From a virus (lineage: Duplodnaviria > Heunggongvirae > Uroviricota > Caudoviricetes), in IMG/VR virus record IMGVR_UViG_2778261087_000001, positions 1-30,286 of that record: DNA of 30,286 bases. One strand, given 5' to 3'. The notes below the pieces were generated by a model. It had not been told where the DNA came from. It saw nothing but the letters and a program-made list of their open reading frames with translations, and searched no databases. The translations under genes were made by a program, and so were the position numbers. Numbering within the stretch: the first letter of the stretch is position 1; each line of letters begins with the position of its first letter. Shown here one piece after another: positions 2,726-28,522 of the stretch.

Positions 2726-3351
2726 ACCGCCAGCGCCTTACTGGCAGTGATGTACCGAGCGCGCCGGTCGTCGATGCCGTTCCTGCCACCATTGATAATC
2801 AGAGTTACACGTGCAATATCGCCGGTATACTTCATGCAACCTTTGCTGGAGAAGAACCACGCCGCGCTACGAGCCGCGTATTCGTCCTGCGCCAACAGTT
2901 CAGGATTCTCCAGCAGGTCCACTTTCAGGCCGTTTCCGCAATCACGATAGTTATTCAAACCGGTAATCTGGATAAGTCCGCGGCCACGGTAATTCCAGCC
3001 ATCACCAGAGGCATTGTTCCCCATGCGTTTGCTGTACACCAGATTGGCGATCGCTCTCTGGCGCTCGAGTGGCAATGGTGGTTCACCAGCACGGCGACCA
3101 AGTGCATTAGCCTGTCCCTGAGTGAGACGCCCAGCCCGAACGAAGTTAGCCAGTCCGGTGACGCTGTAGTTGAAATTTTCCTGCAACCGGGTGAATCCAC
3201 CAGACTCATGCCCGACCTGAGCAATAAACATTGCCTGATCTTCAGCTTTGCTGATACCAAACTCTTTCATCGCAGAAGTTATATGCGAGAACCAGCGTGC
3301 GGCCAGCGCCTCGCTAATACCAGCAGCTCGCTGGAATTGTTTAATCTCCAT
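2722..3351 (-). CDS. endolysin, glycoside hydrolase family 19 (chitinase-like) type
   Basis: 209 aa with [12 protein letters not shown]...GRGLIQITG motifs typical of GH19 phage endolysins; sits between holin-like genes and Rz. Confidence 0.8.
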
Positions 3352-4104: not shown

Positions 4105-4160
4105 CCATATGTGGATTAAACTTGATCTGATAATTCTTAACGAAATTACCTTAAAGGTGA
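4105..4160 (+). promoter_or_regulatory. bipartite intergenic motif, copy A (CCATATGTGGAT ... ATTACCTTAAAGGTGA)
   Basis: CCATATGTGG at 4105-4114 and ATTACCTTAAAGGTGA at 4145-4160; same two elements recur at 6084-6150 and 24999-25077. Confidence 0.45.
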
Positions 4161-6083: not shown

Positions 6084-6150
6084 TATTACCTTAAAAACCA
6101 CATATGGATAGATAACCCATAAATACGAACAGATATTACCTTTCAGGTGA
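6084..6150 (+). promoter_or_regulatory. bipartite intergenic motif, copy B (TATTACC-N7-CCACATATGGAT ... TATTACCTTTCAGGTGA)
   Basis: TATTACC at 6084-6090, CCACATATGG at 6098-6107, TATTACCTTTCAGGTGA at 6134-6150; about 75 bp upstream of the plus-strand ORF at 6227. Confidence 0.5.
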
Positions 6151-6484: not shown

Positions 6485-6796
6485 GGTTTGCAATTACCAA
6501 CTGGAGTGCTTATATTTACCTTTGCGGTAAATTTACATCGCACTCCTCTTGTGCCATAGTAATCGGGCACTGGCAAAATCCAGTGCCGGGATTGGCGTCC
6601 CGGGTTACTACAGAGGCACATATGCCGCATAAGCGGTTTTTTTATGTGTAAAGCGCACCTATTCTATGGTGGGCTGTGTGGGGGCACCGAAAGGTGCGCC
6701 GGGTCCTTTGTAGCCGGTTACGCCAACCCTGTACAGTTCACCACCAACCGATTGGCGTCGGTAGTGGTGATTAACCTAACTACAAAGGTGATCACT

Positions 6797-7483
6797 ATGA
6801 CTGCTAACGTAACCCCATCTGTTTTTCATTTTGAATCAGAAGCAACCATTCGAGCCATTGTTATTGATGGAAATCCTTGGTTTGTTGCCAAAGACGTTAT
6901 TAAAGCTCTTCAACTGACAAACCCCACTATGTCAATAAAATCTCTTGATGATGATGAAAGGGCTAAATTTAACTTAGGCCGTCAAGGCGAAACCAATATT
7001 ATCAACGAGTCAGGCCTCTACACACTGATCCTCCGCTGCCGCGACGCAGTGACACCAGGCACTATCCCCTACCGCTTTCGTAAATGGGTTACAGGTGAGG
7101 TTCTTCCTCAGATCCGCCGCACCGGAAGTTACATTAAAAACTCGCTCCCGCAGGAAGAACGCATAAAGATGGTTGCCGACCAGGTAGCCAGCGCCACAGC
7201 ATCAGCAGTGATGCAGGCAATGAAGGTAGAGAACAAAACCTACAGCGCCCCACTGAAGCCCGGCTACCGCAGCCTGATTCATTCGCCGTCTGGTGTTCTT
7301 GGACTGACGGAGAACTCACTGCTGATGAATCTGCTGAACCAGTTACAGGACGACGGGCATGACGTATCGGGCGCGGCGGCGGAGCTGACCACCATGTTCT
7401 GCTACATCGTCGGTGTGAGCAAATGCCTGCGTGATATCCAGACGCACGCGGAGTACATCAGCGACAAAGCAGGATTCTTCTGA
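6797..7483 (+). CDS. Bro-N domain protein (antirepressor-like)
   Basis: From ATG 6797 (AAGGTG 6 nt upstream): VFHFE...IRAIVIDGNPWFVAKDVIKAL...SLDDDERAKF is a typical Bro-N signature; the track extension upstream to 6644 has no RBS and is rejected. Confidence 0.7.
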   Translation: MTANVTPSVFHFESEATIRAIVIDGNPWFVAKDVIKALQLTNPTMSIKSLDDDERAKFNLGRQGETNIINESGLYTLILRCRDAVTPGTIPYRFRKWVTGEVLPQIRRTGSYIKNSLPQEERIKMVADQVASATASAVMQAMKVENKTYSAPLKPGYRSLIHSPSGVLGLTENSLLMNLLNQLQDDGHDVSGAAAELTTMFCYIVGVSKCLRDIQTHAEYISDKAGFF

Positions 7484-7547: not shown

Positions 7548-7564
7548 TATTACCTTAAAGGTAA
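7548..7564 (+). promoter_or_regulatory. TATTACCTTAAAGGTAA motif, copy D, abutting the RBS
   Basis: Near-perfect palindrome TTACCTTAAAGGTAA immediately 5' of AAGGAGG (7564-7570) and ATG 7577. Confidence 0.45.
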
Positions 7565-7764: not shown

Positions 7765-8208
7765 TTGAAGTTTAACATTAGAATATCTAATAGTTTTCTA
7801 CATGGGGAAAGCAACACCCCTTTCGCTGTAGACGGACCTTTCCTTACTGATGATGAAATAAAAATCATACAAAGGTTTTTAGAGGATGTTGCCAATGGAA
7901 GGGCGCTTGTTGGAAAAAACAAGCCCTCGTGGGTTGATGATAACCATGATAAAATTCCCGGCTCAGACAATTATGAGCAAGAGAATTATTGGCATTATCA
8001 TTGTGGGCCAACATGGTATCCAAACACATTTAAGAATTATACCATTAACTTAAATTTCAACCCTGGCGGAATGCATTCTAATGAATGCATTCATTATGCA
8101 AAAAATGATAATGAAATTGTCATTGTTGGATTTTCAAGAGAACACATACCTTTCCTTTCATCAGATGGAAACAACAATCCGCTTTTTAATGATGAAGAAG
8201 AAGAATAA
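7765..8208 (+). CDS. hypothetical protein, AT-rich moron (147 aa, acidic C-terminus)
   Basis: TTG start with AGGAG 6 nt upstream; markedly AT-rich codon usage with rare AGA/AGG/ATA codons, unlike flanking GC-rich phage genes; followed by a strong terminator. Confidence 0.5.
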   Translation: MKFNIRISNSFLHGESNTPFAVDGPFLTDDEIKIIQRFLEDVANGRALVGKNKPSWVDDNHDKIPGSDNYEQENYWHYHCGPTWYPNTFKNYTINLNFNPGGMHSNECIHYAKNDNEIVIVGFSREHIPFLSSDGNNNPLFNDEEEE

Positions 8209-8986: not shown

Positions 8987-11461
8987 TTATTGCGGAGTGA
9001 CATCCTGAGGTCGCCACCAGTATGTCTGGTTAAACTCTTTCTTCGAACGTTGCTCCATTTTACGCAAATAGCCTGGTGAAAAATACTCCTGCATCTGGTT
9101 AAAGATCATATGATCGAGAGCCGCCTTTAAGTACCAGAGATTCGCACCTGGCATCAAACCTTTCCCCAGCTTCACCAGATCACCACCAGTCTGCTCACTC
9201 TTCCCTTCCACAGCATTTAACGGTATGCCCTGAGCAATCTTCACTACGTCATCAACCAGACCAGCTACCGGGCCAAGCATCGACGCCAGCGCGCCGCTTC
9301 CGTACCTAGTGTGATCTGACAATAAAAAGTCACCGTAAAGGCCAAGACCACCACCTTTCAGTAGAGCACCAAGCCAGAATTTTGCGGCATCTTCTCCTGT
9401 CATATCTCGAGGATTACGACCAGACGCAAGGTCGTTAAGTTGCTGCGACAAAGCGCCAAGAATGGTCGTACTGGCAATAAACGTCGCAATATATGCCGCA
9501 CGCCCACCAGCAGACGGCATCCCCATAGCGCGTGACCAGTGACGCATAACCACCGAGATAGGGAACGATTTAAACAGGAAAACACTTCTCGTTAATTCAC
9601 CTTTCCATGTTCCACGCTGAATACCAGAACCGGTTATCAGTTGCTCACGTGCTCCCGGTGTAATAACAGCCATATCAACTTCTTCAGTTACAGCACCGAG
9701 CAGTTTACGCATTGCCTCAAATTTCACGCGTTCAGGCTCACCAATATGTTTAACTGCTGAATCAGGGATACGCATAATGCTTTCCGGTGTCAGCATCGTA
9801 TTATTACCGTTCCCCCAGTCCTCCTGTTGCGCCAGCTTCCATACGCTCCAGTCTGTGTCAGTAATCCCTTTGCTTTTCAGGATACGAAAATCAGAGTCAT
9901 CGAGGCTACGAAGGTCTGGTGTCCGTGACACTACTTCTCCCAGGCTTCCCATCATAGTTACGCCATAGGCGCGCTTGTGCGCATCTGACCATGCTGTAAG
10001 CCCACTGGCACGCATTACCGCAGTTGCCGCCCAACGAGACACAGACGGCCCCATATTATCCATCGCCCAGCGGTTAACGCTGCCAAGTAGAGATTCCATC
10101 GCCAGACCAGCTCGGCGCGCCCGCGCAAGCTCAGTACGGTTCGTTGGGTCCATAGCTTCAAGCTGGTTGCGGAATAACTGGTTCATTGGAAGGTTGGTAA
10201 CCTTCGCAGACAGATACATGGTTCCAAGATCAGAGAACGATGACAGCAACGCGGATCCGAGTCTGCTGGCAACCAGCCAGTTGCGGATATTGTCAGACCA
10301 TCGCGCGATGTGCGGATTCGCTACAGGCTGTGTCTTTCCGGAAATAAAGTTGTACAGATTCTCTGTGTTGTTCGCCAGCCGCTCGACTTTACCGGTTTTA
10401 CTCGGGTTAGCTGTTGCCGTTTCTGCCTTCACCTGATCAAGAAGAGAGCGGAAAACATGATCGGGGTTTGGGCCATATGTTTCCACCAATGCAATATCTT
10501 TACTGATACCTTCAAGGTGACCGACCATGATTTCCCATAGAGAGCGATCGCCATAAAGTTGCTGATATTGCAGATAGGAATCTGCATCTTTGAAATGTAT
10601 CTGTCGTGATGCATTACCACGGTTAGCACGTGCGCCGGAAATTCGCATTCCGGTATCAGTAAGCTTATTCAGCCCACCAGTAGCGATCGTGTTATAAGCC
10701 TCTCCAAGAAATGCAGACAACTCGGCATCGTTCATCAGTTGTCCATCGGCTCGGGTATAATATTTGCGATCCAGCTTACCTATAACATCGCTAACCCATT
10801 TATCTTTTGATACCGCCCCAACCTTTTCCATAGAATGATGTTGAGGGATCCCCCAGTTTTCGAGATAGCCAATGTCCCCACCAGCATCATTAAACCGGCG
10901 GCGCAGCAGCTCTGTAACTTCTCTCCACGCCTTAGCACCTTTTCTTGCTTTAGCATTGCCAGTATTTTGCCCCCGCATTTCATATATCAGGTCACGTACG
11001 CCCGCTTCATCTTCAAACAGACCAAAAAAGCGAGGATCAACTGCTTCGAATGCCTCCTGCAATTGACTCAATGCATAATCACGGGTGGCTTTTGTTCTGG
11101 ATTCAACAGAGAGGAAATTCGATTTACCGTCTGCATTAAAAGCAATAGTACGGTTAAGAGCGCCAAGTTTCCCATCAGCCCCTTGATAGCTATTGATAAA
11201 TTTATCCAATCTCTGACGTGCGGCTATAGTGAGGGCCACACGACGTTTCTTTAATGCCGCTTCTCGCTGTAATTCTTCAGATGCCAATTGTGCTGCACGA
11301 TACAACCGTTCTGATTCGGAAAGTTGTCGCCACGACATCGGGTCATCACGAGCAATGGAGCGCATATTTCGATAAATGCGGTCTTCAATGTTCTGTATTT
11401 CTCGCGCCGTTAACGTGCGCTGCGCCGCCTGCTGGACCGCTTGTATACATTCCTGTCTCAT
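8987..11461 (-). CDS. internal virion / ejection protein (large, 824 aa)
   Basis: Third of three consecutive very large proteins between the tail tube genes and the tail fiber, the position of T7 gp15/gp16-like core proteins; hydrophobic Gly-rich C-terminal segment. Confidence 0.6.
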   Translation of the reverse strand: MRQECIQAVQQAAQRTLTAREIQNIEDRIYRNMRSIARDDPMSWRQLSESERLYRAAQLASEELQREAALKKRRVALTIAARQRLDKFINSYQGADGKLGALNRTIAFNADGKSNFLSVESRTKATRDYALSQLQEAFEAVDPRFFGLFEDEAGVRDLIYEMRGQNTGNAKARKGAKAWREVTELLRRRFNDAGGDIGYLENWGIPQHHSMEKVGAVSKDKWVSDVIGKLDRKYYTRADGQLMNDAELSAFLGEAYNTIATGGLNKLTDTGMRISGARANRGNASRQIHFKDADSYLQYQQLYGDRSLWEIMVGHLEGISKDIALVETYGPNPDHVFRSLLDQVKAETATANPSKTGKVERLANNTENLYNFISGKTQPVANPHIARWSDNIRNWLVASRLGSALLSSFSDLGTMYLSAKVTNLPMNQLFRNQLEAMDPTNRTELARARRAGLAMESLLGSVNRWAMDNMGPSVSRWAATAVMRASGLTAWSDAHKRAYGVTMMGSLGEVVSRTPDLRSLDDSDFRILKSKGITDTDWSVWKLAQQEDWGNGNNTMLTPESIMRIPDSAVKHIGEPERVKFEAMRKLLGAVTEEVDMAVITPGAREQLITGSGIQRGTWKGELTRSVFLFKSFPISVVMRHWSRAMGMPSAGGRAAYIATFIASTTILGALSQQLNDLASGRNPRDMTGEDAAKFWLGALLKGGGLGLYGDFLLSDHTRYGSGALASMLGPVAGLVDDVVKIAQGIPLNAVEGKSEQTGGDLVKLGKGLMPGANLWYLKAALDHMIFNQMQEYFSPGYLRKMEQRSKKEFNQTYWWRPQDVTPQ

Positions 11462-11466
11462 TTAAT

Positions 11467-13269
11467 TTAACCTCTCAAGAAACACGCCACAGCAACATCA
11501 AACAGGCTGGAATCCTGTATTGCCTGCTCACTTTCCCTGTTCGCTTCATCCAGTACTTCACGCGCACTGCGCGATTGTGGATTACCATCATCATCCAGCA
11601 CGGTGATTATCATGTCAGGTGATTCAAGCAGCGAGTCTTCAGCTATGCGCAGATCAATATCTCCTGCCTGATCTGACATCATTTTTTGTTCTGCCTGTTG
11701 CAATATTTTATCAGGCTCAAAAGGAGCTACTTCGTCTGGCGTCCTGACCTCTGCTGTTTTATAGAATGAAACAGCCTGAGCATTAAGTTCACTTTCTGCC
11801 TGCTGTCTCCGAGCCAGTTCTGCTCGAGCTTCAAAAAACTGACCGCCAGGCTCGTGCGGTGCCAACGCGTTACGGGAAAATTCCAGGCGTTCTTGTGCCT
11901 GCCGGATTCGTTGATCAATATCGCGAAGTCTGGCCTGTTTATCTGATCGAGCACGAGACAAAGCTTTACCGCTACCGGTTGGCTCTTCTGCAAGAATTTG
12001 TGCACGCTGTTCAGTGAGATTTTCAATAATTCGTTGGCTATTAGCGATTTCAGACTGGTAAACCTGTCTATCTCCACGCGGCAAAAGATGCGCGGCCTGT
12101 TCTTCAAGCAACCGATTTTCTATAGCGCGCGCCGTTACTCCATCATCTACAGATGACAGAGCCTCATTAACTGCCTGAGACAGCAGACTCTTGCGCCCAG
12201 GAATTTCACTGAAAGATGCAGACTCAACAATGCTGGCAACGTCTACAGGTCTCCCCTGGCTAACATCAGACATAGCTTTTCGCAGAGCCTGAATGTGAGA
12301 ATTGCGCGAAAGCACGTTGATCGGCACGCCGGGCGCAATATCAATTTCAGCATGATGAGCGGCATTCGCCGCCAGTGCAGCATCGATATCAACTGGTGAA
12401 AAATTTGGTGCGTTTGTAGACTCGCCGCGAGAGTTAATAAATCTGCCGACACCACCAAACGCCACCCCAAGAACAGCATCAATAGCAATTGCCTGTCGAT
12501 CCAACACATCATACTGGTTAGCCATTTCGCTATAGCCACCATCACGAAGTGTTTTTGCAGTAAGCCCACGCTGTGCCATACCGAACGCAATATTTGTACC
12601 TGCGGCATAGGCAATATCTGGCGTTGCACGTACTGCTGTTGCTGCGGCGCGTCGCACTGAACTCTCACCCGTCCGCGCAAGCTGAGCCGCCACACCTTCC
12701 GCCAGCGCACCACCAGCACGTAACCCGAGGCTCATAGGGATCAGCGTTCCGGCACCAGCAGTAATGCCCTGCACTAATCCCGCTTCCTGCGCCGTCCTGA
12801 AATCAACACCCTGTGCTGTCAGCCGTTCAAACTCAGAAAAACCCTGTAGCGAAGTTACCGCCGCTGCACCTCCGACAGGACCACCGAGCGTTGTACCGAC
12901 AACAGCCTGCCCGCCCATATCGAACAACCCATAAAGAACCTGCCCAGCGGTTCCGGTTGTCGCGGCATCAGGCGTCAGCCGCTTAACCTGCTGCTCTGCT
13001 AGTTTTCTCTGCTCGGCAATGTATGAAACTGAAGTATCATTGAGCGAGGTGTTTTCGTTAACAAACTGAGCAATCGGGGATACGATTTTATCCATCCCTG
13101 CCCATAGCAACTGATCTGGCTTTGCCACCAGCCCGGAGTACAAACCAGACAATGCCGCTCCTACAGCATTGTCGAAAAAACCAACATCGCTGTTAAAGCC
13201 AGCTGGATTTGATGCTGCTTCGTCAAGCTGCTGATTCTGGTTTACTGGATTAAGGCCAAAGTAACTCAT
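11467..13269 (-). CDS. internal virion / ejection protein (600 aa)
   Basis: Gly/Ala-rich N-terminal half and charged coiled-coil C-terminal half; translationally coupled to flanking core genes. Confidence 0.55.
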   Translation of the reverse strand: MSYFGLNPVNQNQQLDEAASNPAGFNSDVGFFDNAVGAALSGLYSGLVAKPDQLLWAGMDKIVSPIAQFVNENTSLNDTSVSYIAEQRKLAEQQVKRLTPDAATTGTAGQVLYGLFDMGGQAVVGTTLGGPVGGAAAVTSLQGFSEFERLTAQGVDFRTAQEAGLVQGITAGAGTLIPMSLGLRAGGALAEGVAAQLARTGESSVRRAAATAVRATPDIAYAAGTNIAFGMAQRGLTAKTLRDGGYSEMANQYDVLDRQAIAIDAVLGVAFGGVGRFINSRGESTNAPNFSPVDIDAALAANAAHHAEIDIAPGVPINVLSRNSHIQALRKAMSDVSQGRPVDVASIVESASFSEIPGRKSLLSQAVNEALSSVDDGVTARAIENRLLEEQAAHLLPRGDRQVYQSEIANSQRIIENLTEQRAQILAEEPTGSGKALSRARSDKQARLRDIDQRIRQAQERLEFSRNALAPHEPGGQFFEARAELARRQQAESELNAQAVSFYKTAEVRTPDEVAPFEPDKILQQAEQKMMSDQAGDIDLRIAEDSLLESPDMIITVLDDDGNPQSRSAREVLDEANRESEQAIQDSSLFDVAVACFLRG

Positions 13270-15779
13270 TGCGGAATATCTCCGGAGAATCTCTGACGCT
13301 TCTGTGTCAGATTAAGAACAACGGGAGAACCATCATCTTTCAGCAGATAACCAGTACCAAGTTTCACCAGGTACTGACTATCGCCGTAACTTTGCAAACC
13401 ATACTGACCAGGCGGTGTTTTTATCCCAGAGCCGACAACTTGTTCATTCCAAGCCTGATTAACCTGCTTATCGAATTGCTCTGCAGACATTCCCCACGGC
13501 AAAAGGACATTCCCCATTCCGTTATAGTCATGCACGCCACCTGTAGCTACGTTAACAGCCTGTTTCCAGACATCATTGTCAATTTCGCCTGATACCACGC
13601 CTTTTTTCGCCATCACACCAGCGTAATAATCCTTTGCGATCTCGTATGCCATTGATGCCCCCTGAGCGTCACCAGCAAATGCATCCTTCACCATGTCAGA
13701 AAACTCAAGGCGAAGATCAGCATCTTTAGGCATCGGAATACCTTTCGCATCATCAGTACCTTTACGAGCCGCCGCGCCAGCAAGAATTGTCTGCGCAGCG
13801 GTTTCAGGAGACACGGAAACATCCGGATTAAACCAGTTTTTTTCTGCCAAAATACCACCAGGCTTATCCATCAGTATCCCGGCAACGGCAGCAGATGGAG
13901 CGTTGGCACTGATCTGCTGTAGTGCTGACATATACACCTGCCCACCACCAGTGCTCTGCCTGATGGTATCGAGATATGCTGCCTGTTGGGAAACGGGCGC
14001 ATCACGAAAGAAAACACCGATCTGATTGGCCTCGTCTTTGGAAAAGAACGTCAGTGGAGTGCCATATGACTTAGCAAGGTCACTGACCTGAGCGGCACGC
14101 AAGGCAACGCTCTGTCCAAAGTTATCCTTATTGCTCATGTCGATAGGCTTTGCCTGTCCGGAGGCAAGAGAGAACTGCACAGGATCCGACTGCCGCTGCT
14201 TTATCACCTGATTTGCAGCCGAAACAACGTTGTCATAAAGAGCTGCACGAGACGCATAACCCTCCCCTGTCTCACCAGTATCCGGACGTAATTGCTCAAC
14301 ATATGCGGTAATGCTGCTTGTCGGCATGTTGCGGAAAGAGCCTATATACTGTCCGGCGATCTGCGTATTTCTGAACTCGGTATATCGCAGGTTTCCTTCT
14401 CTGACGCCATAAGCTGCAATAAAATCAGCCTCACCAGGTGGATTAGGAAATTCAACGCCACGCATATACGCAGCCGTCGCATCGCGAACCTGGCTGTCAA
14501 TCATCGTTTTATATTCAGCCTGCTGCTGCCGACGCAGTTGATCCGCCTGTCGCATAAAACTTGCCTGCGCCTCAGGAGATGCCGCATCGAATGCTGCATT
14601 ACCGGTATAGCGTTTGGTGTTGGTTGGAATTGTTGATAAACCAAGTGCTGCACTGACACCAGCAGTTAACTGCTGATCACTGTATGGCTGGCTACCGTTC
14701 TCATGATGGATAATGGCTGCACAAAGCGCCTTCAGGGTATCAGGATTAGATGCATCGAGAGGATCATCAGCAGAAACGCCAAGTTGTTCGCACACTGCTT
14801 TGATATACGACATAGTATCATTTTTATCAGTAGGCGGTGCCCAGCGATTAATTATCTCGCTGACGGTATCAATACCCTGCCGCTGATACGACATCAGGTT
14901 TCGCCCTAATGCACGAATCCCGTGTTCAGGTGTTTCGAATTTAGCAAATCGACCATCATCACCGGTCTGGCCTACCCACGGATTAGTTTTGCTGTATTCG
15001 AGATTTCCTGGGTTATTGTTGCGTATGCCACGGGCACGCTCGGAAGAGTCACTATCTGCTACAGCACGGCGAGCTCCAGCAGCAGTATCACTTAACTCGC
15101 CATTACTTTGGATGAATGCGGTCGCATTGTTTGCCGACCACTGGGACAATGCGGCATCAGCAACCTTCTCTTTAAACTCGATTTTCTTGGCCTGGATTTG
15201 CTCGTCGCTCCAGCCATGCGCAATGCCGTAATCCTCAATTTGCTGGAAAGTTTGCTTATTAGCCAATACGTATGCGGCGTTGTCGCCATACAATGCTGCG
15301 GCATTTTTACCATTGTTCAGCAGCGTCGCCTGAAACTGGCCTTCTTCGTAGGCATTTATTTGCCCTATCTCGTGCCGCCCGGCCTGCGTAGTGAACTGAA
15401 TGCGCTGCTGCTGCGCCTGCTGCATGAAAGCATTACGAGCCTGTTCATCCGGCAGCGACATAGCCAGTTGCTCGACCTGGGCATCAAACTGCTGCGTATA
15501 CTCCTGACCTTTTCCAATAGCATTTTTCCCTTTCAGGTTAAGCAAACCTGTTTCAGGGTTATTCAGCAGATCGCTGCTTATCTGGCTTAAGCTAAGAGAA
15601 GCATCCTGAGCCATAGCAACATTCGCACGCTGTTTTGCCTGCGCAATAATACCTGCATATTGCTCTGCAACATCGCCAAGTACATCACCGACATTTGGTG
15701 TCTGAAACGATGAGAATCCCTGCGTCGAAATCCCTCTGCTCTGAACCTGACGGCCCGATGTTGTTGGTACAACTGGCAT
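13266..15779 (-). CDS. internal virion / ejection protein (837 aa)
   Basis: Large Gln/Ala-rich protein in the core-protein block; 4-nt overlap with the next gene. Confidence 0.55.
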   Translation of the reverse strand: MPVVPTTSGRQVQSRGISTQGFSSFQTPNVGDVLGDVAEQYAGIIAQAKQRANVAMAQDASLSLSQISSDLLNNPETGLLNLKGKNAIGKGQEYTQQFDAQVEQLAMSLPDEQARNAFMQQAQQQRIQFTTQAGRHEIGQINAYEEGQFQATLLNNGKNAAALYGDNAAYVLANKQTFQQIEDYGIAHGWSDEQIQAKKIEFKEKVADAALSQWSANNATAFIQSNGELSDTAAGARRAVADSDSSERARGIRNNNPGNLEYSKTNPWVGQTGDDGRFAKFETPEHGIRALGRNLMSYQRQGIDTVSEIINRWAPPTDKNDTMSYIKAVCEQLGVSADDPLDASNPDTLKALCAAIIHHENGSQPYSDQQLTAGVSAALGLSTIPTNTKRYTGNAAFDAASPEAQASFMRQADQLRRQQQAEYKTMIDSQVRDATAAYMRGVEFPNPPGEADFIAAYGVREGNLRYTEFRNTQIAGQYIGSFRNMPTSSITAYVEQLRPDTGETGEGYASRAALYDNVVSAANQVIKQRQSDPVQFSLASGQAKPIDMSNKDNFGQSVALRAAQVSDLAKSYGTPLTFFSKDEANQIGVFFRDAPVSQQAAYLDTIRQSTGGGQVYMSALQQISANAPSAAVAGILMDKPGGILAEKNWFNPDVSVSPETAAQTILAGAAARKGTDDAKGIPMPKDADLRLEFSDMVKDAFAGDAQGASMAYEIAKDYYAGVMAKKGVVSGEIDNDVWKQAVNVATGGVHDYNGMGNVLLPWGMSAEQFDKQVNQAWNEQVVGSGIKTPPGQYGLQSYGDSQYLVKLGTGYLLKDDGSPVVLNLTQKRQRFSGDIPQ

Positions 15780-22782: not shown

Positions 22783-23075
22783 TCCTGTTCACTGGCCTCT
22801 TTGGCCATCTTCAAATACTGTTCAGGGCAATGCGCCATAACGCGCTGAAACAGTTCCAGCGCCAGATTGCGTTGCCCCTCATTAAATGCCATTGCCATAG
22901 CGTCCATCGGTGAGATAGCGGAAAACACACGGCCTTTCTCCAGCACCGACCAGACAACGCGACGCCCCTGTTCACTGCTCATGACAAAGCGAATGTCATC
23001 AATTTCACGCTGCGCCATGTCACGTTGCTTACGGGCGTTTTCTTCTTTCAGTTGATCGTCTTCGTAATCTGTCAT
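22779..23075 (-). CDS. hypothetical protein (98 aa)
   Basis: Charged helical ORF, ATGA-type overlaps with the portal and scaffold genes. Confidence 0.45.
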   Translation of the reverse strand: MTDYEDDQLKEENARKQRDMAQREIDDIRFVMSSEQGRRVVWSVLEKGRVFSAISPMDAMAMAFNEGQRNLALELFQRVMAHCPEQYLKMAKEASEQE

Positions 23076-24751
23076 TGTGATTGCCCACCCTGACCACTAA
23101 CTGCATTCGCCATAGCTGACAACACACTCGGATCCGAAGTTTTAGCTTCGCTTAGCGTCTTGGCCCCCTGTGCCGCCGCCATCCCCATCGCCATCATTTG
23201 TTGCTGCTGTTGTTGCTGTGCCCGTTGCTGGCGAGCCTGCTCAACCTGTTCCTGCGGAACAATGACGGTTGGAGACACTCCGGACATATCAGCGAATGCA
23301 TCGATCGCCTGATCAACGTTGAGTTTGTCGAGAGCTTCTGGTTTCGCTTGCGCAAGTTGACCAATGAAGTTGACCGTAGACGCCAGACTGGACAGGCCGA
23401 TAGACTTCTGCGCCTGAGCCATGACGGAAATGTATTCGACCTTCAGGGGCATACCTTCCATCGCGTCAGGCGGTGGCGGCAGCATGTTTTTACGCACCAT
23501 CATCGAGAAAGCGCGGTCAATGAGAGGATTAAGACATTCGTCGTTCAGACGCTCCAGAACCGGCCCCAACATCAGAAGTTTTTCTTCTTTCATTTCGATC
23601 ACTGCTTCAACAGGCATCGAGCGGGTATTGATGTTCTGCAACATCATGAACAGATCGACAAAGTAGGCGCTGTTAATGATTTGACGAGTGTCCTGAATGT
23701 CTGCTACCAGATCTGCTGTACTGGGGTTAACCAGATAAGCAGGCCTGAAGCCATCCTGACCAGTAATCTGATCGATATACGTGATGTCGCCAGGAAGAAG
23801 GGAGGCGCGCTGATTCTTGAGGGAAGTCGGAGCAACCATCGGCGGATTGGTGGCTTTATCAATCAACTGCGACTTGCGCTTCTGGAGAAGTTGCAATGCC
23901 TTAACAGGTCCAAGCGCCAGCATACCCGGGCATGATGATCCATAAACATCTTCGCCATTAACTTCCCAGCGCGGAGCCATAATTGGAAACTCATCAAATC
24001 CGGACTCACGCAACAACTTGTCGTTATCGCCACCAACCTCGTAATAAACCGATTTGAATGGCTTGTTCTTGCTATCCAGCTTCGATGTATCGCGGTCAAT
24101 GTTCGGGTAAACCGAATGCATCACTTCAATCCACTTCTCGTAGGTGCCGCTTTCCCACATGCTTTTTACGGATTCGCTGACGTTATTTAGTCCGAACTCC
24201 TGAACAAGCTGACGAACAGTCATAGAGAACTTGCGAAAACAGGTGTCCACACTGCCACGAGGTGAGTTAGCCAGGTAGTAACTGCCTATCGGGAATGGCA
24301 TTGTGCGAATGATGTCCTCATCATCCTCCAGCACTGCCATTGCACCAGTGCTGTATGTGCCTAGGCTTCCGTATAACTGCGGCAGTGACTGATAGAGATT
24401 CGACTTATTGAACATATCGTTCATGCGGTTCTGCACCGCCTCAAGCCACAACTTAACAGGGCCATAATCCATCATTTCAGGATCTGGCGTAGCCAGGCGA
24501 AACCACGGACGCGCGGGGCTTGTGATGCCTGACATCATGCCGCTGGCGAGAGTGCGCGCCGCTATAGTCCCGGTAGAATCAATAATGCGTGTATTGCGTC
24601 GATCGTTACGGTTGACCTCAGAAGTCAGAAAGCGGGAACCACGCGGGTTGATGTAATCACTCAACTCGCGCCAGTGCGGCTCGAACGACTGACGCTCGCT
24701 TTCAAGTTGTGCGAACTGTTTGTTCAATCGCTCTTTAGTTGTTTCCGCCAT
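23072..24751 (-). CDS. portal (head-to-tail connector) protein
   Basis: 559 aa, Gln-rich flexible C-terminus, first long gene of the head module after terminase. Confidence 0.7.
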   Translation of the reverse strand: MAETTKERLNKQFAQLESERQSFEPHWRELSDYINPRGSRFLTSEVNRNDRRNTRIIDSTGTIAARTLASGMMSGITSPARPWFRLATPDPEMMDYGPVKLWLEAVQNRMNDMFNKSNLYQSLPQLYGSLGTYSTGAMAVLEDDEDIIRTMPFPIGSYYLANSPRGSVDTCFRKFSMTVRQLVQEFGLNNVSESVKSMWESGTYEKWIEVMHSVYPNIDRDTSKLDSKNKPFKSVYYEVGGDNDKLLRESGFDEFPIMAPRWEVNGEDVYGSSCPGMLALGPVKALQLLQKRKSQLIDKATNPPMVAPTSLKNQRASLLPGDITYIDQITGQDGFRPAYLVNPSTADLVADIQDTRQIINSAYFVDLFMMLQNINTRSMPVEAVIEMKEEKLLMLGPVLERLNDECLNPLIDRAFSMMVRKNMLPPPPDAMEGMPLKVEYISVMAQAQKSIGLSSLASTVNFIGQLAQAKPEALDKLNVDQAIDAFADMSGVSPTVIVPQEQVEQARQQRAQQQQQQQMMAMGMAAAQGAKTLSEAKTSDPSVLSAMANAVSGQGGQSQ

Positions 24752-24765
24752 TTCAATGACTCCGG

Positions 24766-24972
24766 TTACTGACCAAGCAGCGTTTTACCGCTGGTATTAG
24801 CGGTTGATGTGTCGCCCTGAGAACCGGTAAGCAGCGTAGAACTACGACCAGCAGCAGCGCGACGGCGACGTGTTTCTTCGTCGCGGGCATCAACAACGGC
24901 GGCATCCTGCTCCTGTGGTGCTGCCTGAACTTCTGGTGTTGCAGGCACTGATGGTGAGCTACCCATGCACAT
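24766..24972 (-). CDS. hypothetical small protein (68 aa)
   Basis: ATG with GGAG 10 nt upstream; Ala/Thr/Arg-rich, low complexity; could be non-coding. Confidence 0.3.
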   Translation of the reverse strand: MCMGSSPSVPATPEVQAAPQEQDAAVVDARDEETRRRRAAAGRSSTLLTGSQGDTSTANTSGKTLLGQ

Positions 24973-24998
24973 ATCAATGACTCCGTACGCAATTAAAT

Positions 24999-25077
24999 TA
25001 TTACCAATTTAACCATATATGATTTATTTATCGTAGATAGTTGACATTTAACGCACGAATTATTACCTTTCAGGTAG
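24999..25077 (+). promoter_or_regulatory. bipartite intergenic motif, copy C, with TTGACA; candidate promoter of the tRNA unit
   Basis: TATTACC (24999-25005), CCATATATGA (25013-25022), TTGACA (25041-25046), TATTACCTTTCAGGTAG (25061-25077). Confidence 0.45.
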
Positions 25078-25399
25078 GTAAAGGGTTCATTACGGTTACT
25101 AACCTGACTGGCTTGTCGTTAAATTGAACAGGTGGAGTGAGCTTTTATTTTGAGCAGTACGGCGTATGGCACATGCGCCGATAGCGGTCTGGATACGTTT
25201 AAGGGGCACCCTCCCTTGCTCGGGCAAACGAACCAGGTAGCCGGAATGTGCAAGTCGAGCGGTTTTATTCCGCGCACGGGGATTCACCATCCCGGCGATT
25301 CGGTGTGACTCCTCGGAAGATACGAGGGTACAACGATGAGAGCATTTATGGAGCCGCGACAAAGTGTGGCGCCTTAACAGGCTAAGTGCTCTCAGCGTT

Positions 25400-25476
25400 G
25401 TGGCATTAGCTCAGTCGGACAGAGCAACCGCCTTCTAAGCGGTTGGTCGCAGGTTCGAATCCTGCATGCCACGCCA
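25400..25476 (+). tRNA. tRNA-Arg (anticodon TCT)
   Basis: 77 nt; 7-bp acceptor stem GTGGCAT/ATGCCAC, D arm GCTC...GAGC, anticodon stem ACCGC/GCGGT with loop CTTCTAA, T arm GCAGG-TTCGAAT-CCTGC, discriminator G, CCA end; acceptor stem differs from host argU as recalled. Confidence 0.85.
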
Positions 25477-25519
25477 GAATCACGCCTAAGGACCGTGATG
25501 CCAGAAGTTCCAGGTGCTT

Positions 25520-25561
25520 GGCGGTGATGGTTTCCCTTGAAGGACTATCACCGCCCTTTTT
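25520..25561 (+). terminator. terminator-like hairpin downstream of the tRNA
   Basis: 9-bp stem GGCGGTGAT (25520-25528) / ATCACCGCC (25547-25555), 18-nt loop, then CTTTTT. Confidence 0.45.
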
Positions 25562-25639
25562 ACAGCAGGACGCCATTGCGATGACTTCATGCTGTAAACC
25601 AGTACAGCCACGGAAGGCATAACTCATTGCTTCCAGTTC

Positions 25640-25663
25640 GCCCGGCGAACCGGGCATTTTTTT
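25640..25663 (+). terminator. rho-independent terminator just upstream of the gp49-like gene
   Basis: GCCCGG-CGAA-CCGGGC hairpin followed by ATTTTTTT, ending at the RBS of the next gene. Confidence 0.5.
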
Positions 25664-25674
25664 AAGGTGAGATT

Positions 25675-26055
25675 ATGAACGACCAGCAAATCGAAAAAGA
25701 AATCGTTGAGAAAGGCAAAACGGCACCGCGAATCACCCCGCAGCACATCGAAGATGTGATTAAAAGCGAGCATTACTTTACTGCTTATGATGGACGAAAT
25801 GGTGCCATTTCCAGCAACGAATATTGTGGCAGAGAAAAACCAGAAGAAGGCGATCGTGATTTATCACCATTGAAGTTGCTCACTTTCTGCGTACTGGTGC
25901 TGAAGAATGGCTTCACCGTCACCGGAGAGAGTGCCTGTGCAAGCCCGGAAAATTTTGATGCAGAAATTGGTCGGAAGATTGCCCGGCAGAATGCTGTAAA
26001 CAAAATCTGGATGCTCGAAGGTTACTTGCTGAAGCAGAAGTTAAGCGAGCAATAA
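25675..26055 (+). CDS. phage Gp49-like protein (function unknown)
   Basis: 126 aa, AAGGTGA RBS; segment LTFCVLVLKNGFTVTGESACASPENFD...IWMLEGYLLK matches the Gp49-like family as recalled. Confidence 0.55.
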   Translation: MNDQQIEKEIVEKGKTAPRITPQHIEDVIKSEHYFTAYDGRNGAISSNEYCGREKPEEGDRDLSPLKLLTFCVLVLKNGFTVTGESACASPENFDAEIGRKIARQNAVNKIWMLEGYLLKQKLSEQ

Positions 26056-26059
26056 CACC

Positions 26060-26071
26060 GTGACATGTCAC
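26060..26071. repeat. 12-bp perfect palindrome GTGACATGTCAC (copy 2 of 3)
   Basis: Exact palindrome 5 nt after the gp49-like stop codon and just before its terminator. Confidence 0.6.
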
Positions 26072-26075
26072 AAAC

Positions 26076-26102
26076 AGCCAGCCGATGAGCTGGCTTTGTT
26101 TT
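26076..26102 (+). terminator. rho-independent terminator
   Basis: AGCCAGC-CGATGA-GCTGGCT hairpin followed by TTGTTTT. Confidence 0.65.
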
Positions 26103-26145
26103 ATCCTCACCAGAGGATATCAGCAGTATTATCCCCACCAGCGGA

Positions 26146-27621
26146 TTAAGCATAAGGGTCATAATCCGTTATGGCCCTTCCCTGCTGGCTTTGCTGTCCT
26201 GGTATATTTATGCGTTTCGAGACCGGGAAAGCAAACGTCAGCAATAGCGCATCGCCTTTCCCCGGCGAACGCCCAAGTCGCTCCTTGATATCTTCCTTCG
26301 GTTCGATAACGATTTTACCGTCCACGCGAACTTTGTACTCTGCCGTCGACAGGTCGTCCGCTGTTTCTTGGTCATCCAGCATGCCGCCGAGCCTCAGCCA
26401 TGTCTTGCATGAGTTGAACATCTCCCCACGCTTGTTGAGCATCTGCGGGTCAGTAGACGCGCCACCGAACGGAACAAGTTGCCATGTACGACCCCAGCCG
26501 TCACCGATTGACTTCAAACCGGTTCCGTAACCGAAGTCGATGAACACCGCGTCAGCCTGATACTGGTCTTCAAAGTCAGCGATACGCTTCGCCATAATCA
26601 GATCGTCGGTAGTCTTGTTGCCAGTCCACAGCACCTTACTGTGTAGCCCCTGCCGCAGGTATATCACAGCGTCATCAACACCGGAGTATGCCGGGTCAAC
26701 GCCGATTATCACCGGAGCATGTGCAACCTGCGCAGCGGTTACCACCCGTTTCATTGCCTCGTCAGTAAGACCGGTAGGGATAAACTGCAATTCAGATGCA
26801 TCAGGGAATATGCCACGCACACGGATTTTAACGAAGTCGCTGTCTTCCCCGTAGTCATCAACCCATTTCTGCAACTGCTGTTTGTTGGTACCTTCCACCG
26901 TCCGACTGTCAATCTGCGCAGTTTTCCAGCGGTGTTTATACTTGCGGAAACATTCACGGAAACGTCCGGTATTACGAGTCGGGTTTCCGAACGCCACCCA
27001 GATGATTTCGGTGTCTTCGTCCGTCAGCGCACCCTCTGCTACCTCCCACACCAGATCGGCAATGTTCGACGCTTCATCGAATACCACGATGATGCGTTTG
27101 CGCTCGTTGTGTAGTCCGGCGAATGCCTCAGTGTTGTGCTCAGACCATGGGATTGCGTCAGCTCGCCACCGCTTGTCGTGCCCAGGGTCATTGCTGTACA
27201 TCGCGGTAGCGGTACAGGTAAACCAGTCTTTCGTGATAGCAAGGTTTGACCACTTGATAATTTCCGGCCAGGTCTTCGTTCGTAGCTGGTTGTCGGTGTT
27301 GGCGGTCACCACGACCTTACAATCCTCGCAAGTGGACATGCCCCAGTTGATCAGCATTGAGATGAATGCGGATTTACCAATACCGTGACCAGAAGCGCGT
27401 GCCAGCATAAGCGGCTGATAGCGCGTCTCTGGATTCTGCAGGTGATCACGTATCTCTCGGAACGCATCGGCCTGCCACTGACGTGGACCGGTGGCATGTG
27501 CCAGTTCAGTACCCTCTTCCCCCCACGGGAACGCATAGAGGGCATAGCCAAGCGGATCGTGAGTGAACCCTGCAATATCCTCGATTAACTGCTCTTCAGG
27601 AGATAACGCTGTATCTGTCAC
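26146..27621 (-). CDS. terminase large subunit
   Basis: 491 aa; Walker A-like GHGIGKS in the N-terminal ATPase region, acidic nuclease-like C-terminal half; 4-nt overlap with the upstream small-terminase ORF. Confidence 0.85.
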   Translation of the reverse strand: MTDTALSPEEQLIEDIAGFTHDPLGYALYAFPWGEEGTELAHATGPRQWQADAFREIRDHLQNPETRYQPLMLARASGHGIGKSAFISMLINWGMSTCEDCKVVVTANTDNQLRTKTWPEIIKWSNLAITKDWFTCTATAMYSNDPGHDKRWRADAIPWSEHNTEAFAGLHNERKRIIVVFDEASNIADLVWEVAEGALTDEDTEIIWVAFGNPTRNTGRFRECFRKYKHRWKTAQIDSRTVEGTNKQQLQKWVDDYGEDSDFVKIRVRGIFPDASELQFIPTGLTDEAMKRVVTAAQVAHAPVIIGVDPAYSGVDDAVIYLRQGLHSKVLWTGNKTTDDLIMAKRIADFEDQYQADAVFIDFGYGTGLKSIGDGWGRTWQLVPFGGASTDPQMLNKRGEMFNSCKTWLRLGGMLDDQETADDLSTAEYKVRVDGKIVIEPKEDIKERLGRSPGKGDALLLTFAFPVSKRINIPGQQSQQGRAITDYDPYA

Positions 27622-28214
27622 TGATTGCCATCCTGACGTTCTTTCAGTCTCTTCCTGGCTGCCGCTATGCGATCAGCAATTGTCACATTCACATTAACAT
27701 CCAGGCGTTCTTTGAATGCGTTGACGTCGACGTGCTTACCAATCAGTTCGAGGTTCTTCACCTTGTCAGGCCATTTAATTTTTTTGAGGATTGTCTCTAT
27801 CGAATCCTCGTTCATGTTCATGATGGTCGATGACAGATCAAAGCCACTAAGCGTAGTGCGCCAGATTTTCGGCCACTCGCGGATTGGCTTAAGGCTCCCA
27901 TCGTCGTTGAGGATGTCGATCACGTCCATCTGGTCGATCTCCACCAGACGCATGAGAACGTAATCAGCACTGACGCGCATTCGTTTGTTGCGCTCCTCCA
28001 TCAGCTCGGCAATCCGTTTTTGAATGCGTTCATCGCGCATCATGACACTGGCTTTAACTGCCGCTGTATTTGGGGAGAATCCTGCGTTAATCGCTGCCTG
28101 AGTCTGGTTTTCAGGCGTTTTGATGTATGACTGGCAATAAGCCTCCTGCATTGCTGTTAGTGGCTTAAATTGCGTTGATTTGCGTTTATAGGTTTTAGGT
28201 TCAGCAGGCATCAT
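27618..28214 (-). CDS. terminase small subunit
   Basis: Basic helical protein immediately upstream of the large terminase; track ORF extends to TTG 28292, but ATG 28214 lies after an upstream terminator and direct repeats and is preferred. Confidence 0.6.
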   Translation of the reverse strand: MMPAEPKTYKRKSTQFKPLTAMQEAYCQSYIKTPENQTQAAINAGFSPNTAAVKASVMMRDERIQKRIAELMEERNKRMRVSADYVLMRLVEIDQMDVIDILNDDGSLKPIREWPKIWRTTLSGFDLSSTIMNMNEDSIETILKKIKWPDKVKNLELIGKHVDVNAFKERLDVNVNVTIADRIAAARKRLKERQDGNQ

Positions 28215-28221
28215 AACCACC

Positions 28222-28250
28222 GTGGTAATAGTTACCGTTGTGGTAATAGT
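28222..28250 (-). repeat. two 11-bp direct repeats (ACTATTACCAC on the minus strand) upstream of terS
   Basis: GTGGTAATAGT on the plus strand at 28222-28232 and 28240-28250; contain the same TATTACC core as the plus-strand motifs. Confidence 0.5.
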
Positions 28251-28251
28251 A

Positions 28252-28283
28252 CCATGCAAAATAAAGCCGCCATAGTTGGCGGC
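28252..28283 (-). terminator. rho-independent terminator between the early-type genes and the packaging operon
   Basis: Minus strand GCCGCC-AACTAT-GGCGGC followed by TTTATTTTG. Confidence 0.5.
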
Positions 28284-28288
28284 AGTAT

Positions 28289-28522
28289 TCAAAGTCCATC
28301 AAATTCATCGTAAAAACTCTCGTCAAGATACCCTTCCCATTTACCGCGAATGAAAATTACATCCTCGCCGCAAGGGTGCTGACTGTCGATAACTATATCC
28401 CTCCTGGCGCAACCATACTTATGCATGAGAAATTTAACCTCTTTCGGAAAATTTGCTGAGTTATCTCTCATATCTTCAAGGTCGTAGCGTATTTTTGGCA
28501 TAACACCTTCGTGACATGTCAC
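28289..28522 (-). CDS. hypothetical protein
   Basis: Track ORF with GTG start inside the palindrome; alternative ATG at 28501 (MPKIRYD...) has AAGGTG only about 2 nt upstream; start uncertain. Confidence 0.45.
   Translation of the reverse strand: MTCHEGVMPKIRYDLEDMRDNSANFPKEVKFLMHKYGCARRDIVIDSQHPCGEDVIFIRGKWEGYLDESFYDEFDGL
28511..28522. repeat. 12-bp perfect palindrome GTGACATGTCAC (copy 3 of 3)
   Basis: Exact palindrome overlapping the stop codon of the 113-aa gene and the 5' end of the next gene. Confidence 0.6.

Follow-up and report, generated by a model that had tools for sequence, protein, structure and literature searches.

The window analysed here, the whole 30,286-nucleotide (nt) stretch of IMG/VR virus record IMGVR_UViG_2778261087_000001, is a phiV10/epsilon15-like (Uetakevirus) Escherichia coli prophage adjoining the host genes yfgH and yfgI, and its positions 25400-25476 hold a genuine, intact tRNA-Arg(UCU) gene that is ordinary as a tRNA. 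The surprise lies in its context, which combines a conserved, apparently uncurated pseudoknotted RNA with an exchangeable tRNA/tRNA-like slot in three temperate enterobacterial phage families. By itself the tRNA adds little, because it is textbook knowledge that temperate enterobacterial phages carry tRNA-Arg(UCU) genes for rare codons, and this one is already annotated. More useful are the findings that its link to an AT-rich moron, proposed in a preliminary description of the window, appears to be wrong, that the gene is not an autonomous insert, and that it belongs to a structured-RNA cassette, absent from Rfam 15, in which conservation is strong and covariation clear. The cassette is common to P1, lambdoid and epsilon15-like phages, and in the P1 and lambdoid layouts it always lies beside a tRNA or tRNA-like element. 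Should it prove to be a regulatory or processing device, it would offer a testable reason for single tRNAs at odd positions in temperate phages and would constitute a new phage RNA class in the best-studied host.

The one tRNA that ARAGORN detected in the window is a tRNA-Arg (anticodon tct), and the Rfam tRNA model (RF00005) scored the same interval far above its gathering score of 29 (E 1.9e-14):

25400-25476, + strand: tRNA-Arg(UCU) gene with encoded CCA (ARAGORN; Rfam, 73.3 bits)

The ARAGORN coordinates are exactly those of the preliminary description, which had read a complete tRNA with anticodon TCT at this place and proposed prediction software as the check; the software both folds the gene and assigns it as tRNA-Arg(UCU). 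All four stems are canonical, with no non-canonical pair in the Rfam alignment: a 7-bp acceptor stem is followed by D, anticodon and T arms, the last with the conserved T-loop GGTTCGAATCC. The D loop, AGUCGGACA, retains G18, G19 and A20, and the discriminator G at 25473 (G73) precedes the encoded CCA at 25474-25476. In the anticodon loop, CUUCUAA, the tRNA does not differ from E. coli argU. Arginyl-tRNA synthetase (ArgRS) of E. coli recognises A20, C35, U36 and G/A73 as identity elements, and A20, C35, U36 and G73 were all found in the phage tRNA, as expected of a UCU isoacceptor. The isolated 77 nt fold below shuffled controls (z = -3.7), and their minimum-energy fold differs from the cloverleaf, which is usual for tRNAs.

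The gene is phage-borne, as had been claimed, and is neither nearly identical to the host gene nor truncated. It is full-length and 82% identical to E. coli argU, from which it differs at 14 of 77 positions; ten of these make up five compensatory stem-pair swaps, of which the acceptor stem has three and the anticodon stem two, and the remaining four differences are in the D and variable loops. Across 117 tRNA-Arg(tct) copies in the fetched loci, variation was almost confined to the D loop, wobble pairs and compensatory stem changes, and a single copy showed an anticodon-loop change (C32 to U). Within the phiV10 group, the only variation was in the D loop, in acceptor-stem U-G wobbles and in one C-G to U-A swap. 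The copy in Klebsiella phage BUCT711 is about 96% identical, although the linker flanking it upstream is unrelated. The tRNA is retained in 76 of 77 close relatives from IMG/VR and is far better conserved than the surrounding DNA among E. coli, Salmonella and Klebsiella phages. These sequence comparisons indicate that the gene is under purifying selection.

Carriers include phiV10, TL-2011b, ZX5, O157 typing phages 9 and 10, phages of the SPN1S group and BUCT711, none of which has the AT-rich moron. The tRNA itself is already known: RefSeq annotates it in APEC O1 (APECO1_RS14090) and many other E. coli genomes, and annotations also exist in O157 typing phages 9 (ECTP9_01596) and 10, phiv142-3, SPN9TCW and SPC32H/N. 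The 1.5-kb region is present at 80% coverage or more in 222 of 5426 complete genomes. The paper on vB_EcoP_ZX5 reports "one tRNA" (PMC9782041). The tRNAs annotated in phiV10- and SPN1S-like genomes (APEC O1, typing phage 9, SPN9TCW, ZX5) represent the same gene at the same position, are 96-100% identical and show no essential difference from that of the window. In the original phiV10 record the tRNA is not called, and an antisense ORF (open reading frame), PhiV10p04, is annotated there instead. The corresponding 83-aa ORF of the window (25406-25657, - strand) matches phrog_4647 (E 1e-52) and PhiV10p04 and overlaps the tRNA and conserved RNA elements; we rejected it as probably an annotation artefact, with a PHROG family built from a misannotated RNA locus.

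Related genes were seen outside this group. A tRNA-Arg(UCU) of Synechococcus phage S-RIM2 (L005, 296-370) shares 92% identity with the window tRNA across 65 nt, more than the host argU does (82%); the match covers the anticodon arm, whose stem and loop have the same sequence in both, and 227 Synechococcus phage records match the window tRNA. A second, distinct tRNA-Arg(tct) lineage with many compensatory differences occurs in P1-like IMG/VR contigs (L205, L121, L126 and L168), which also carry the pseudoknotted RNA adjoining a tRNA-Ile(CAU).

The tRNA gene would form the second element of a rightward non-coding unit of about 500 nt and would have no promoter of its own. It is flanked by the following features, the last of which is the protein gene behind the unit:

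25041-25069, + strand: candidate sigma-70 promoter, with the -35 hexamer TTGACA at 25041-25046, a 17-nt spacer and the -10 hexamer TACCTT at 25064-25069 (conservation)
25062-25077, no strand: operator-like palindrome ATTACCTTTCAGGTAG, which overlaps both the -10 hexamer and the predicted start of transcription
25078-25156, + strand: variable 5′ leader, differing in length and sequence among relatives and absent from the SPN9TCW/L099/L100/L108 types
25157-25335, + strand: pseudoknotted RNA of about 180 nt (covariation in 36 sequences)
25336-25399, + strand: linker, near-identical to that of mEp460, ending in the conserved leader AAGTGCTCTCAGCGTT directly before the tRNA
25479-25499, + strand: trailer hairpin ATCACG-CCTAAGGAC-CGTGAT, starting 3 nt past the CCA and conserved after tRNAs and tRNA-like elements
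25520-25561, + strand: terminator T1, a 14-bp stem (hairpin 25520-25555) followed by CTTTTT (terminator scan, conserved in relatives)
25640-25663, + strand: terminator T2, GCCCGG-CGAA-CCGGGC (hairpin 25640-25655) followed by A and seven T (terminator scan, conserved in relatives)
25675-26055, + strand: cargo gene of the Phage_gp49_66 family (N4 gp49/Sf6 gene 66; Pfam PF13876, E 3.4e-35)

The region 25157-25335 shows strong conservation (70-80% identity), with invariant blocks. Its structure was modelled on 36 diverse sequences (alignment A3) and compared with 500 shuffles and with slid controls, and the model contains the following pairings:

Helices: P1, 25160-64/25176-80; P2, 25184-92 with 25233-41; P5, 25311-15/25323-27
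Pseudoknots: PK1, 25169-74 with 25246-51; PK2, 25285-88 with 25302-05
Closing stem 25254-56/25294-96, enclosing a variable hairpin; P4, 25279-82/25290-93

Together, the five helices and two pseudoknots have 97.5% of alignment cells paired, with compensatory changes at 13 of 34 pairs; none of the 500 shuffles reached the observed pairing and covariation, and the slid controls were 28-44% paired. PK1 is invariant, so that covariation neither supports nor contradicts it, and in PK2 one pair covaries, changing from C-G to A-U in four sequences. The RNA was found in Uetakevirus-like prophages of many genera, in P1 and P7 (in P1 at 71023-71190, 79% identical, starting 15 nt past the end of tRNA-Ile, with ban downstream), in the lambdoid phages mEp460, cdtI, 2H10 and Stx2a and Stx2c phages, and also in Klebsiella and Stenotrophomonas phages; the mEp460 copy lies just downstream of a cI-like gene. 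An invariant 19-mer of the RNA is present on at least 120 IMG/VR contigs. Rfam 15, searched at E<=10, gave no match to this RNA in the window, mEp460 or locus L060. The literature on the prophage small RNAs (sRNAs) Pas, AgvB and AsxR and a genome-language-model preprint on non-coding RNAs contain no description of it, and the pseudoknotted RNA is likewise missing from a P1 transcriptome preprint that does name trnI and ban. The upstream RNA is thus a conserved, strongly covarying and apparently uncurated phage RNA.

The slot that follows this RNA is filled in different ways. Similarity to tRNA-less relatives ends at about 25346 and restarts at 25477/25478, one or two bases past the CCA. In these relatives the slot holds a tRNA-like element whose 5′ end (GTGGTGAAT-GCGCAGGCTGATGCGC) and 3′ end (GCCGGAGATCAGCACCGGC-CACCAC-AA) are conserved and flank a variable stretch of 37-150 nt, the ends being up to 100% identical between genera whose portal genes diverge by about 20%. 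These elements have cloverleaf folds made up of a closing stem, a hairpin on the 5′ side, a central arm that varies and, directly next to the closing stem, a 3′ hairpin, and neither ARAGORN nor Rfam calls them tRNA or transfer-messenger RNA (tmRNA). They were located (GTGGTGAAT...variable...GCCGGAGATCAGCACCGGCCACCACAA) at L060 6101-6372 (-), at 2735-2870 (+) in mEp460 (L234), and in L092 and L096-L108. Phage mEp460 has the full cassette, comprising the RNA, the near-identical linker, the tRNA-like element and two terminator-like hairpins. In relatives, the same 15-nt leader, (A/C)AGTGCTCTNNNCGTT, precedes tRNAs and tRNA-like elements alike, and the trailer hairpin, (G)AATCACG...CGTGAT, follows both. 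The fetched loci contain 189 distinct instances of the RNA, a sample enriched for Uetakeviruses and therefore not a measure of natural frequencies. The RNA is followed by tRNA-Arg(tct) in 83 instances, by a complete tRNA-like element in 47, by a partial one in 18 and by neither in 34, and the flank was too short for classification in 7. A tRNA-Ile also precedes the RNA in 14 instances (5 of the partial group and 9 of the "neither" group). As side observations, two or three tRNA-like elements stand in tandem in L097 and L107, and T-arm-like remnants occur in L096, L107 and SPN9TCW.

The preliminary description had given the tRNA a promoter and a terminator of its own, and only the terminator was found. 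A sigma-70 consensus scan of 24700-26200 detected no promoter-like site anywhere, on which ground a promoter directly beside the tRNA was rejected; the only conserved promoter-like element, 25041-25069, lies about 330 nt upstream. Its TTGAC and ATTACC.T blocks are invariant in 13 relatives from different Enterobacterales genera, with variable sequence between and after them (alignment A2), and from this conservation we infer that it is the promoter of the non-coding unit. The palindrome on its -10 hexamer fits the ATTACC-N5-GGTAAT consensus of epsilon15 sites annotated "repressor, lysogeny", three of which stand beside the repressor gene; the homologous epsilon15 site (2931-2947, between gp3 and the cassette) is among those annotated repressor sites. 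Palindromes of the form TTACC-N5-GGTAA recur in the window at 4146-4160, 6136-6150, 6516-6530, 7550-7564, 25063-25077 and 28232-28246, mostly ahead of transcription units; by analogy with P1, this suggests one repressor controlling many dispersed promoters.

Downstream of the tRNA, the terminator scan found the hairpin at 25520-25555 with its T run, in line with the candidate terminator of the preliminary description. About 11 nt separate the end of T2 from the start codon of the gp49-family gene, whose ribosome-binding site directly follows the T run. Because so strong a terminator abuts this ribosome-binding site, some control of read-through seems to be needed. The tRNA trailer and T1 together have the shape of a small Hfq-type RNA. 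The T1 region of L060 (6020-6067, cassette strand) gives a sub-threshold match to DicF (25.7 bits, E 0.003), and the Rfam search found no DicF match at the T1 of the window itself.

The function we favour, and consider probable without being sure of it, is that the gene supplements scarce host tRNA-Arg(UCU) in lytic growth through co-transcription, processing and charging. Transcription would start from the TTGACA-N17-TACCTT promoter, whose -10 hexamer is overlapped by the repressor-operator-like palindrome; given this overlap, the unit would be expected to stay off in the lysogen and to be turned on by induction or infection. The transcript would run through the pseudoknotted RNA, the linker, the tRNA and the trailer hairpin and end at T1. 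RNase P would cut at 25399/25400, 3′ trimming would free the tRNA, and host ArgRS would charge it. The charged tRNA would read AGA and, less well, AGG, with demand arising mainly from the tailspike, three large late genes (8987-15779) and several small ORFs.

Codon usage bears on this reading in both directions. Codons were counted in 34 window ORFs (8660 codons) and 34 ordinary K-12 genes (9558 codons). Per 1000 codons, AGA occurs 6.1 times in the phage and 2.6 times in K-12 (2.3-fold; Fisher p 4e-4), and AGG 3.8 and 0.84 times (4.5-fold; p 2e-5), which upholds the earlier statement that the tRNA reads codons rare in the host. The 86 AGA and AGG codons of the phage ORFs are widely spread: the tailspike contains 12, a 600-aa protein 10, and proteins of 824, 823 and 837 aa contain 8, 6 and 5, respectively. 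The three large genes at 8987-15779 have 23, and such codons also occur in several small ORFs towards the right-hand end of the window. The major capsid gene, the 233-aa and 98-aa ORFs and the capsid cement gene have none and the portal gene has one, so that the demand lies neither in the capsid or portal genes nor specially in the moron.

Several observations weigh against codon supplementation under repressor control. AGA use shows no consistent association with tRNA presence in five Uetakeviruses: per 1000 codons of structural genes, AGA stands at 5.6 in the window prophage, 3.6 in SPN1S and 3.0 in BUCT711, which have the tRNA, and at 2.1 in epsilon15 and 3.8 in Tyrion, which lack it. A comparison of the window with epsilon15 (5.6 vs 2.1, p 7e-4) had looked supportive of codon co-adaptation, which was rejected once Tyrion and BUCT711 removed the pattern. 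Because AGA use fails to track the tRNA across these relatives, we regard the general idea of codon supplementation as moderately supported. The tRNA is absent from epsilon15-type phages, Klebsiella phage ST11-OXA245phi3.2, Enterobacter phage Tyrion, one close E. coli relative (L060) and prophages of 13 other Enterobacterales species, a distribution that marks the gene as lineage-specific. In many relatives a non-tRNA cloverleaf element fills the tRNA slot, and for that reason decoding may not be what the slot is for. Judged against the consensus, the promoter is weak (9/12 matches overall, 3/6 in the -10 hexamer), and the scan missed it because the -10 hexamer falls under the per-hexamer threshold. 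Repressor binding at 25062-25077 is itself a prediction from sequence.

It is possible, though we would not expect it, that the tRNA is one interchangeable insert of a mobile non-coding cassette common to Uetakeviruses, P1-like and lambdoid phages, of which we found no description. The proposed parts are a repressor-controlled promoter, the RNA of about 180 nt, a tRNA/tRNA-like slot, a trailer hairpin and terminators. Under this proposal, the pseudoknotted RNA would act in cis or in trans in early lytic growth, and a real tRNA would have replaced the tRNA-like element in the phiV10, SPN1S and BUCT711 lineages. The RNA might, for instance, modify RNA polymerase for read-through of T1 and T2 into the cargo gene, or RNase P might free it by cutting at the tRNA or the tRNA-like element.

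The main rival to decoding, which we nonetheless judge unlikely, is that the tRNA is mainly a structural or processing module, in which RNase P and 3′ nuclease sites release the pseudoknotted RNA and the trailer RNA and decoding is secondary. The shared leader and trailer hairpin around tRNAs and tRNA-like elements favour it, as do the cloverleaf folds of these elements, the mixed occupancy of the slot among the 189 RNA instances (83 with the tRNA, 47 with complete and 18 with partial tRNA-like elements) and the position of the P1 RNA 15 nt past tRNA-Ile. RNase P is known to mature the C4 RNA of P1 and P7 and the CI RNA of P4, a further point in its favour. Shape alone, however, would not require an intact anticodon loop or intact Arg identity elements, yet 116 of 117 copies show no change in them, and phages of three host genera all retain this isoacceptor.

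Less probable still is a counter-defence role, in which the phage tRNA replaces host tRNA-Arg(UCU) that has been cleaved or depleted by an anticodon nuclease or host shut-off. Phage tRNAs that resist host tRNA nucleases have been described; the anticodon stem of the present tRNA differs from that of argU at two pairs, and its predicted expression is early and lytic. Its anticodon loop, on the other hand, is identical to that of argU, so a nuclease reading the loop would cut both, and we identified no defence specific for tRNA-Arg(UCU).

The preliminary description held that the tRNA supports expression of AT-rich cargo, namely the moron at 7765-8208. AGA and AGG codons are indeed present in the moron (GC 35%), where they account for all four Arg codons, and the operator-like palindrome at 7550-7564 lies upstream of it, so that moron and tRNA could be co-regulated. 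The supporting role did not stand: these four codons are 5% of the 86 (4/86), against 12 in the tailspike and 23 in the three large genes. Only two phage records, those of phiv142-3 and HEMP4, carry the moron; the tRNA, by contrast, extends across the group, including phiV10-like, SPN1S-like and Klebsiella Uetakeviruses that lack the moron. These distributions largely refute a moron-specific tRNA, which we regard as very improbable. Finally, a pseudogene, captured host fragment or attachment-site remnant, brought to mind by the partial argU-like sequence at the attP of other phages such as epsilon34, is already refuted by the full length, high score, compensatory changes and strong conservation of the gene and by the attachment site of the phage group, which adjoins the integrase, at the 3′ end of guaA and a long way from the tRNA.

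Codon supplementation by a repressor-controlled tRNA, the reading we prefer, can be compared with several known systems. The window tRNA shares with E. coli argU the anticodon loop, the D-arm pattern with A20, the T arm, G73, the CCA and the codons read; it differs in overall identity (82%), in the five swapped stem pairs, and in being phage-borne and under predicted phage-repressor control. In Stx-converting lambdoid phages of the 933W/Nil2 type, ileZ-argN-argO likewise provide a temperate enterobacterial phage with a tRNA-Arg(UCU) for rare codons, upstream of cargo genes (stx). These belong to a different lineage (84-86% identical to the window tRNA over 57 nt). Their place is in the late operon, past the tR′ terminator, where they share the strand of their neighbours and have no pseudoknotted RNA upstream. 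The P1 ban operon has a C1-controlled promoter, a dicF-like region, tRNA-Asn, tRNA-Thr, tciABC, tRNA-Ile and ban, and thus resembles the window in holding tRNAs inside a repressor-controlled early unit together with the pseudoknotted RNA (79% identical). The order differs, in that the P1 RNA follows tRNA-Ile(CAU) and precedes a protein gene, whereas the RNA of the window precedes tRNA-Arg. The ban operon, with tRNAs in a repressor-controlled unit, and ileZ-argN-argO, upstream of stx, supply precedents for the preferred reading.

The put RNA of HK022, an antiterminator acting in cis, comprises about 70 nt with two stem-loops (PMC9378689). Its likeness to the upstream RNA is one of position only: put is, and the upstream RNA would be, a structured RNA transcribed first from a repressor-controlled early promoter with terminators downstream, and the mEp460 cassette stands at a putL/nutL-like position just after the cI-like gene. 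At about 180 nt, with five helices and two pseudoknots, the upstream RNA differs from put in size and architecture, and put was rejected as its identity. By analogy with put, the upstream RNA is a candidate antiterminator.

The assignment of the window to the Uetakeviruses is based on 96-99% DNA identity to phiV10-like phages and on a gene order like that of the APEC O1 prophage, where the same prophage is annotated between yfgI and guaA. The Uetakevirus order runs through terminase, portal, capsid and tail genes and then lysis genes, with integration beside guaA. The genes around the cassette are as follows:

23072-24751, - strand: portal (head-to-tail connector; Pfam PF12236, E 1.4e-186)
24766-24972, - strand: 68-aa gp3-like ORF before the portal gene (phrog_831, E 2.4e-36; annotated in APEC O1, phiV10 and epsilon15)
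26146-27621, - strand: large terminase (tblastn, 98.8-99.8% to the phiV10 and TL-2011b large terminases)
27618-28292, - strand: small terminase (Pfam PF03592)

A Pfam search of the large terminase ORF at E<=0.01 returned no match. Pfam and tblastn thus place both neighbours and agree with the earlier description of the tRNA as lying between terminase and portal genes, on the strand opposite to the structural operon. The + strand between the portal and terminase genes carries a 427-nt stretch devoid of any credible gene, the tRNA, two terminator-like hairpins and the Phage_gp49_66 gene. In the distant relatives AF and Flu_PA14_3, both Pseudomonas phages, terminase, small ORF and portal follow one another uninterrupted and the opposite-strand insert is absent, and for this reason the + strand block is read as an insertion into the structural operon, as had been proposed. 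Across the 77 close relatives (L011-L090), the gap between terminase and portal ranges from 1041 to 2203 nt, and the distance from tRNA to portal is 649-650 nt (648 in one locus). On this comparison, the interval between terminase and tRNA, which includes 25675-26055, is a variable cargo slot.

Elsewhere in the window, isrK (6567-6643, + strand, 74.7 bits) and C4 antisense RNA (6662-6748, + strand, 78.5 bits) were matched, both above the Rfam gathering score, just upstream of or overlapping the start of a BRO-N/antirepressor-like ORF at 6644-7483. By analogy with P1, 6567-6748 would be an antisense control module of the immI type.

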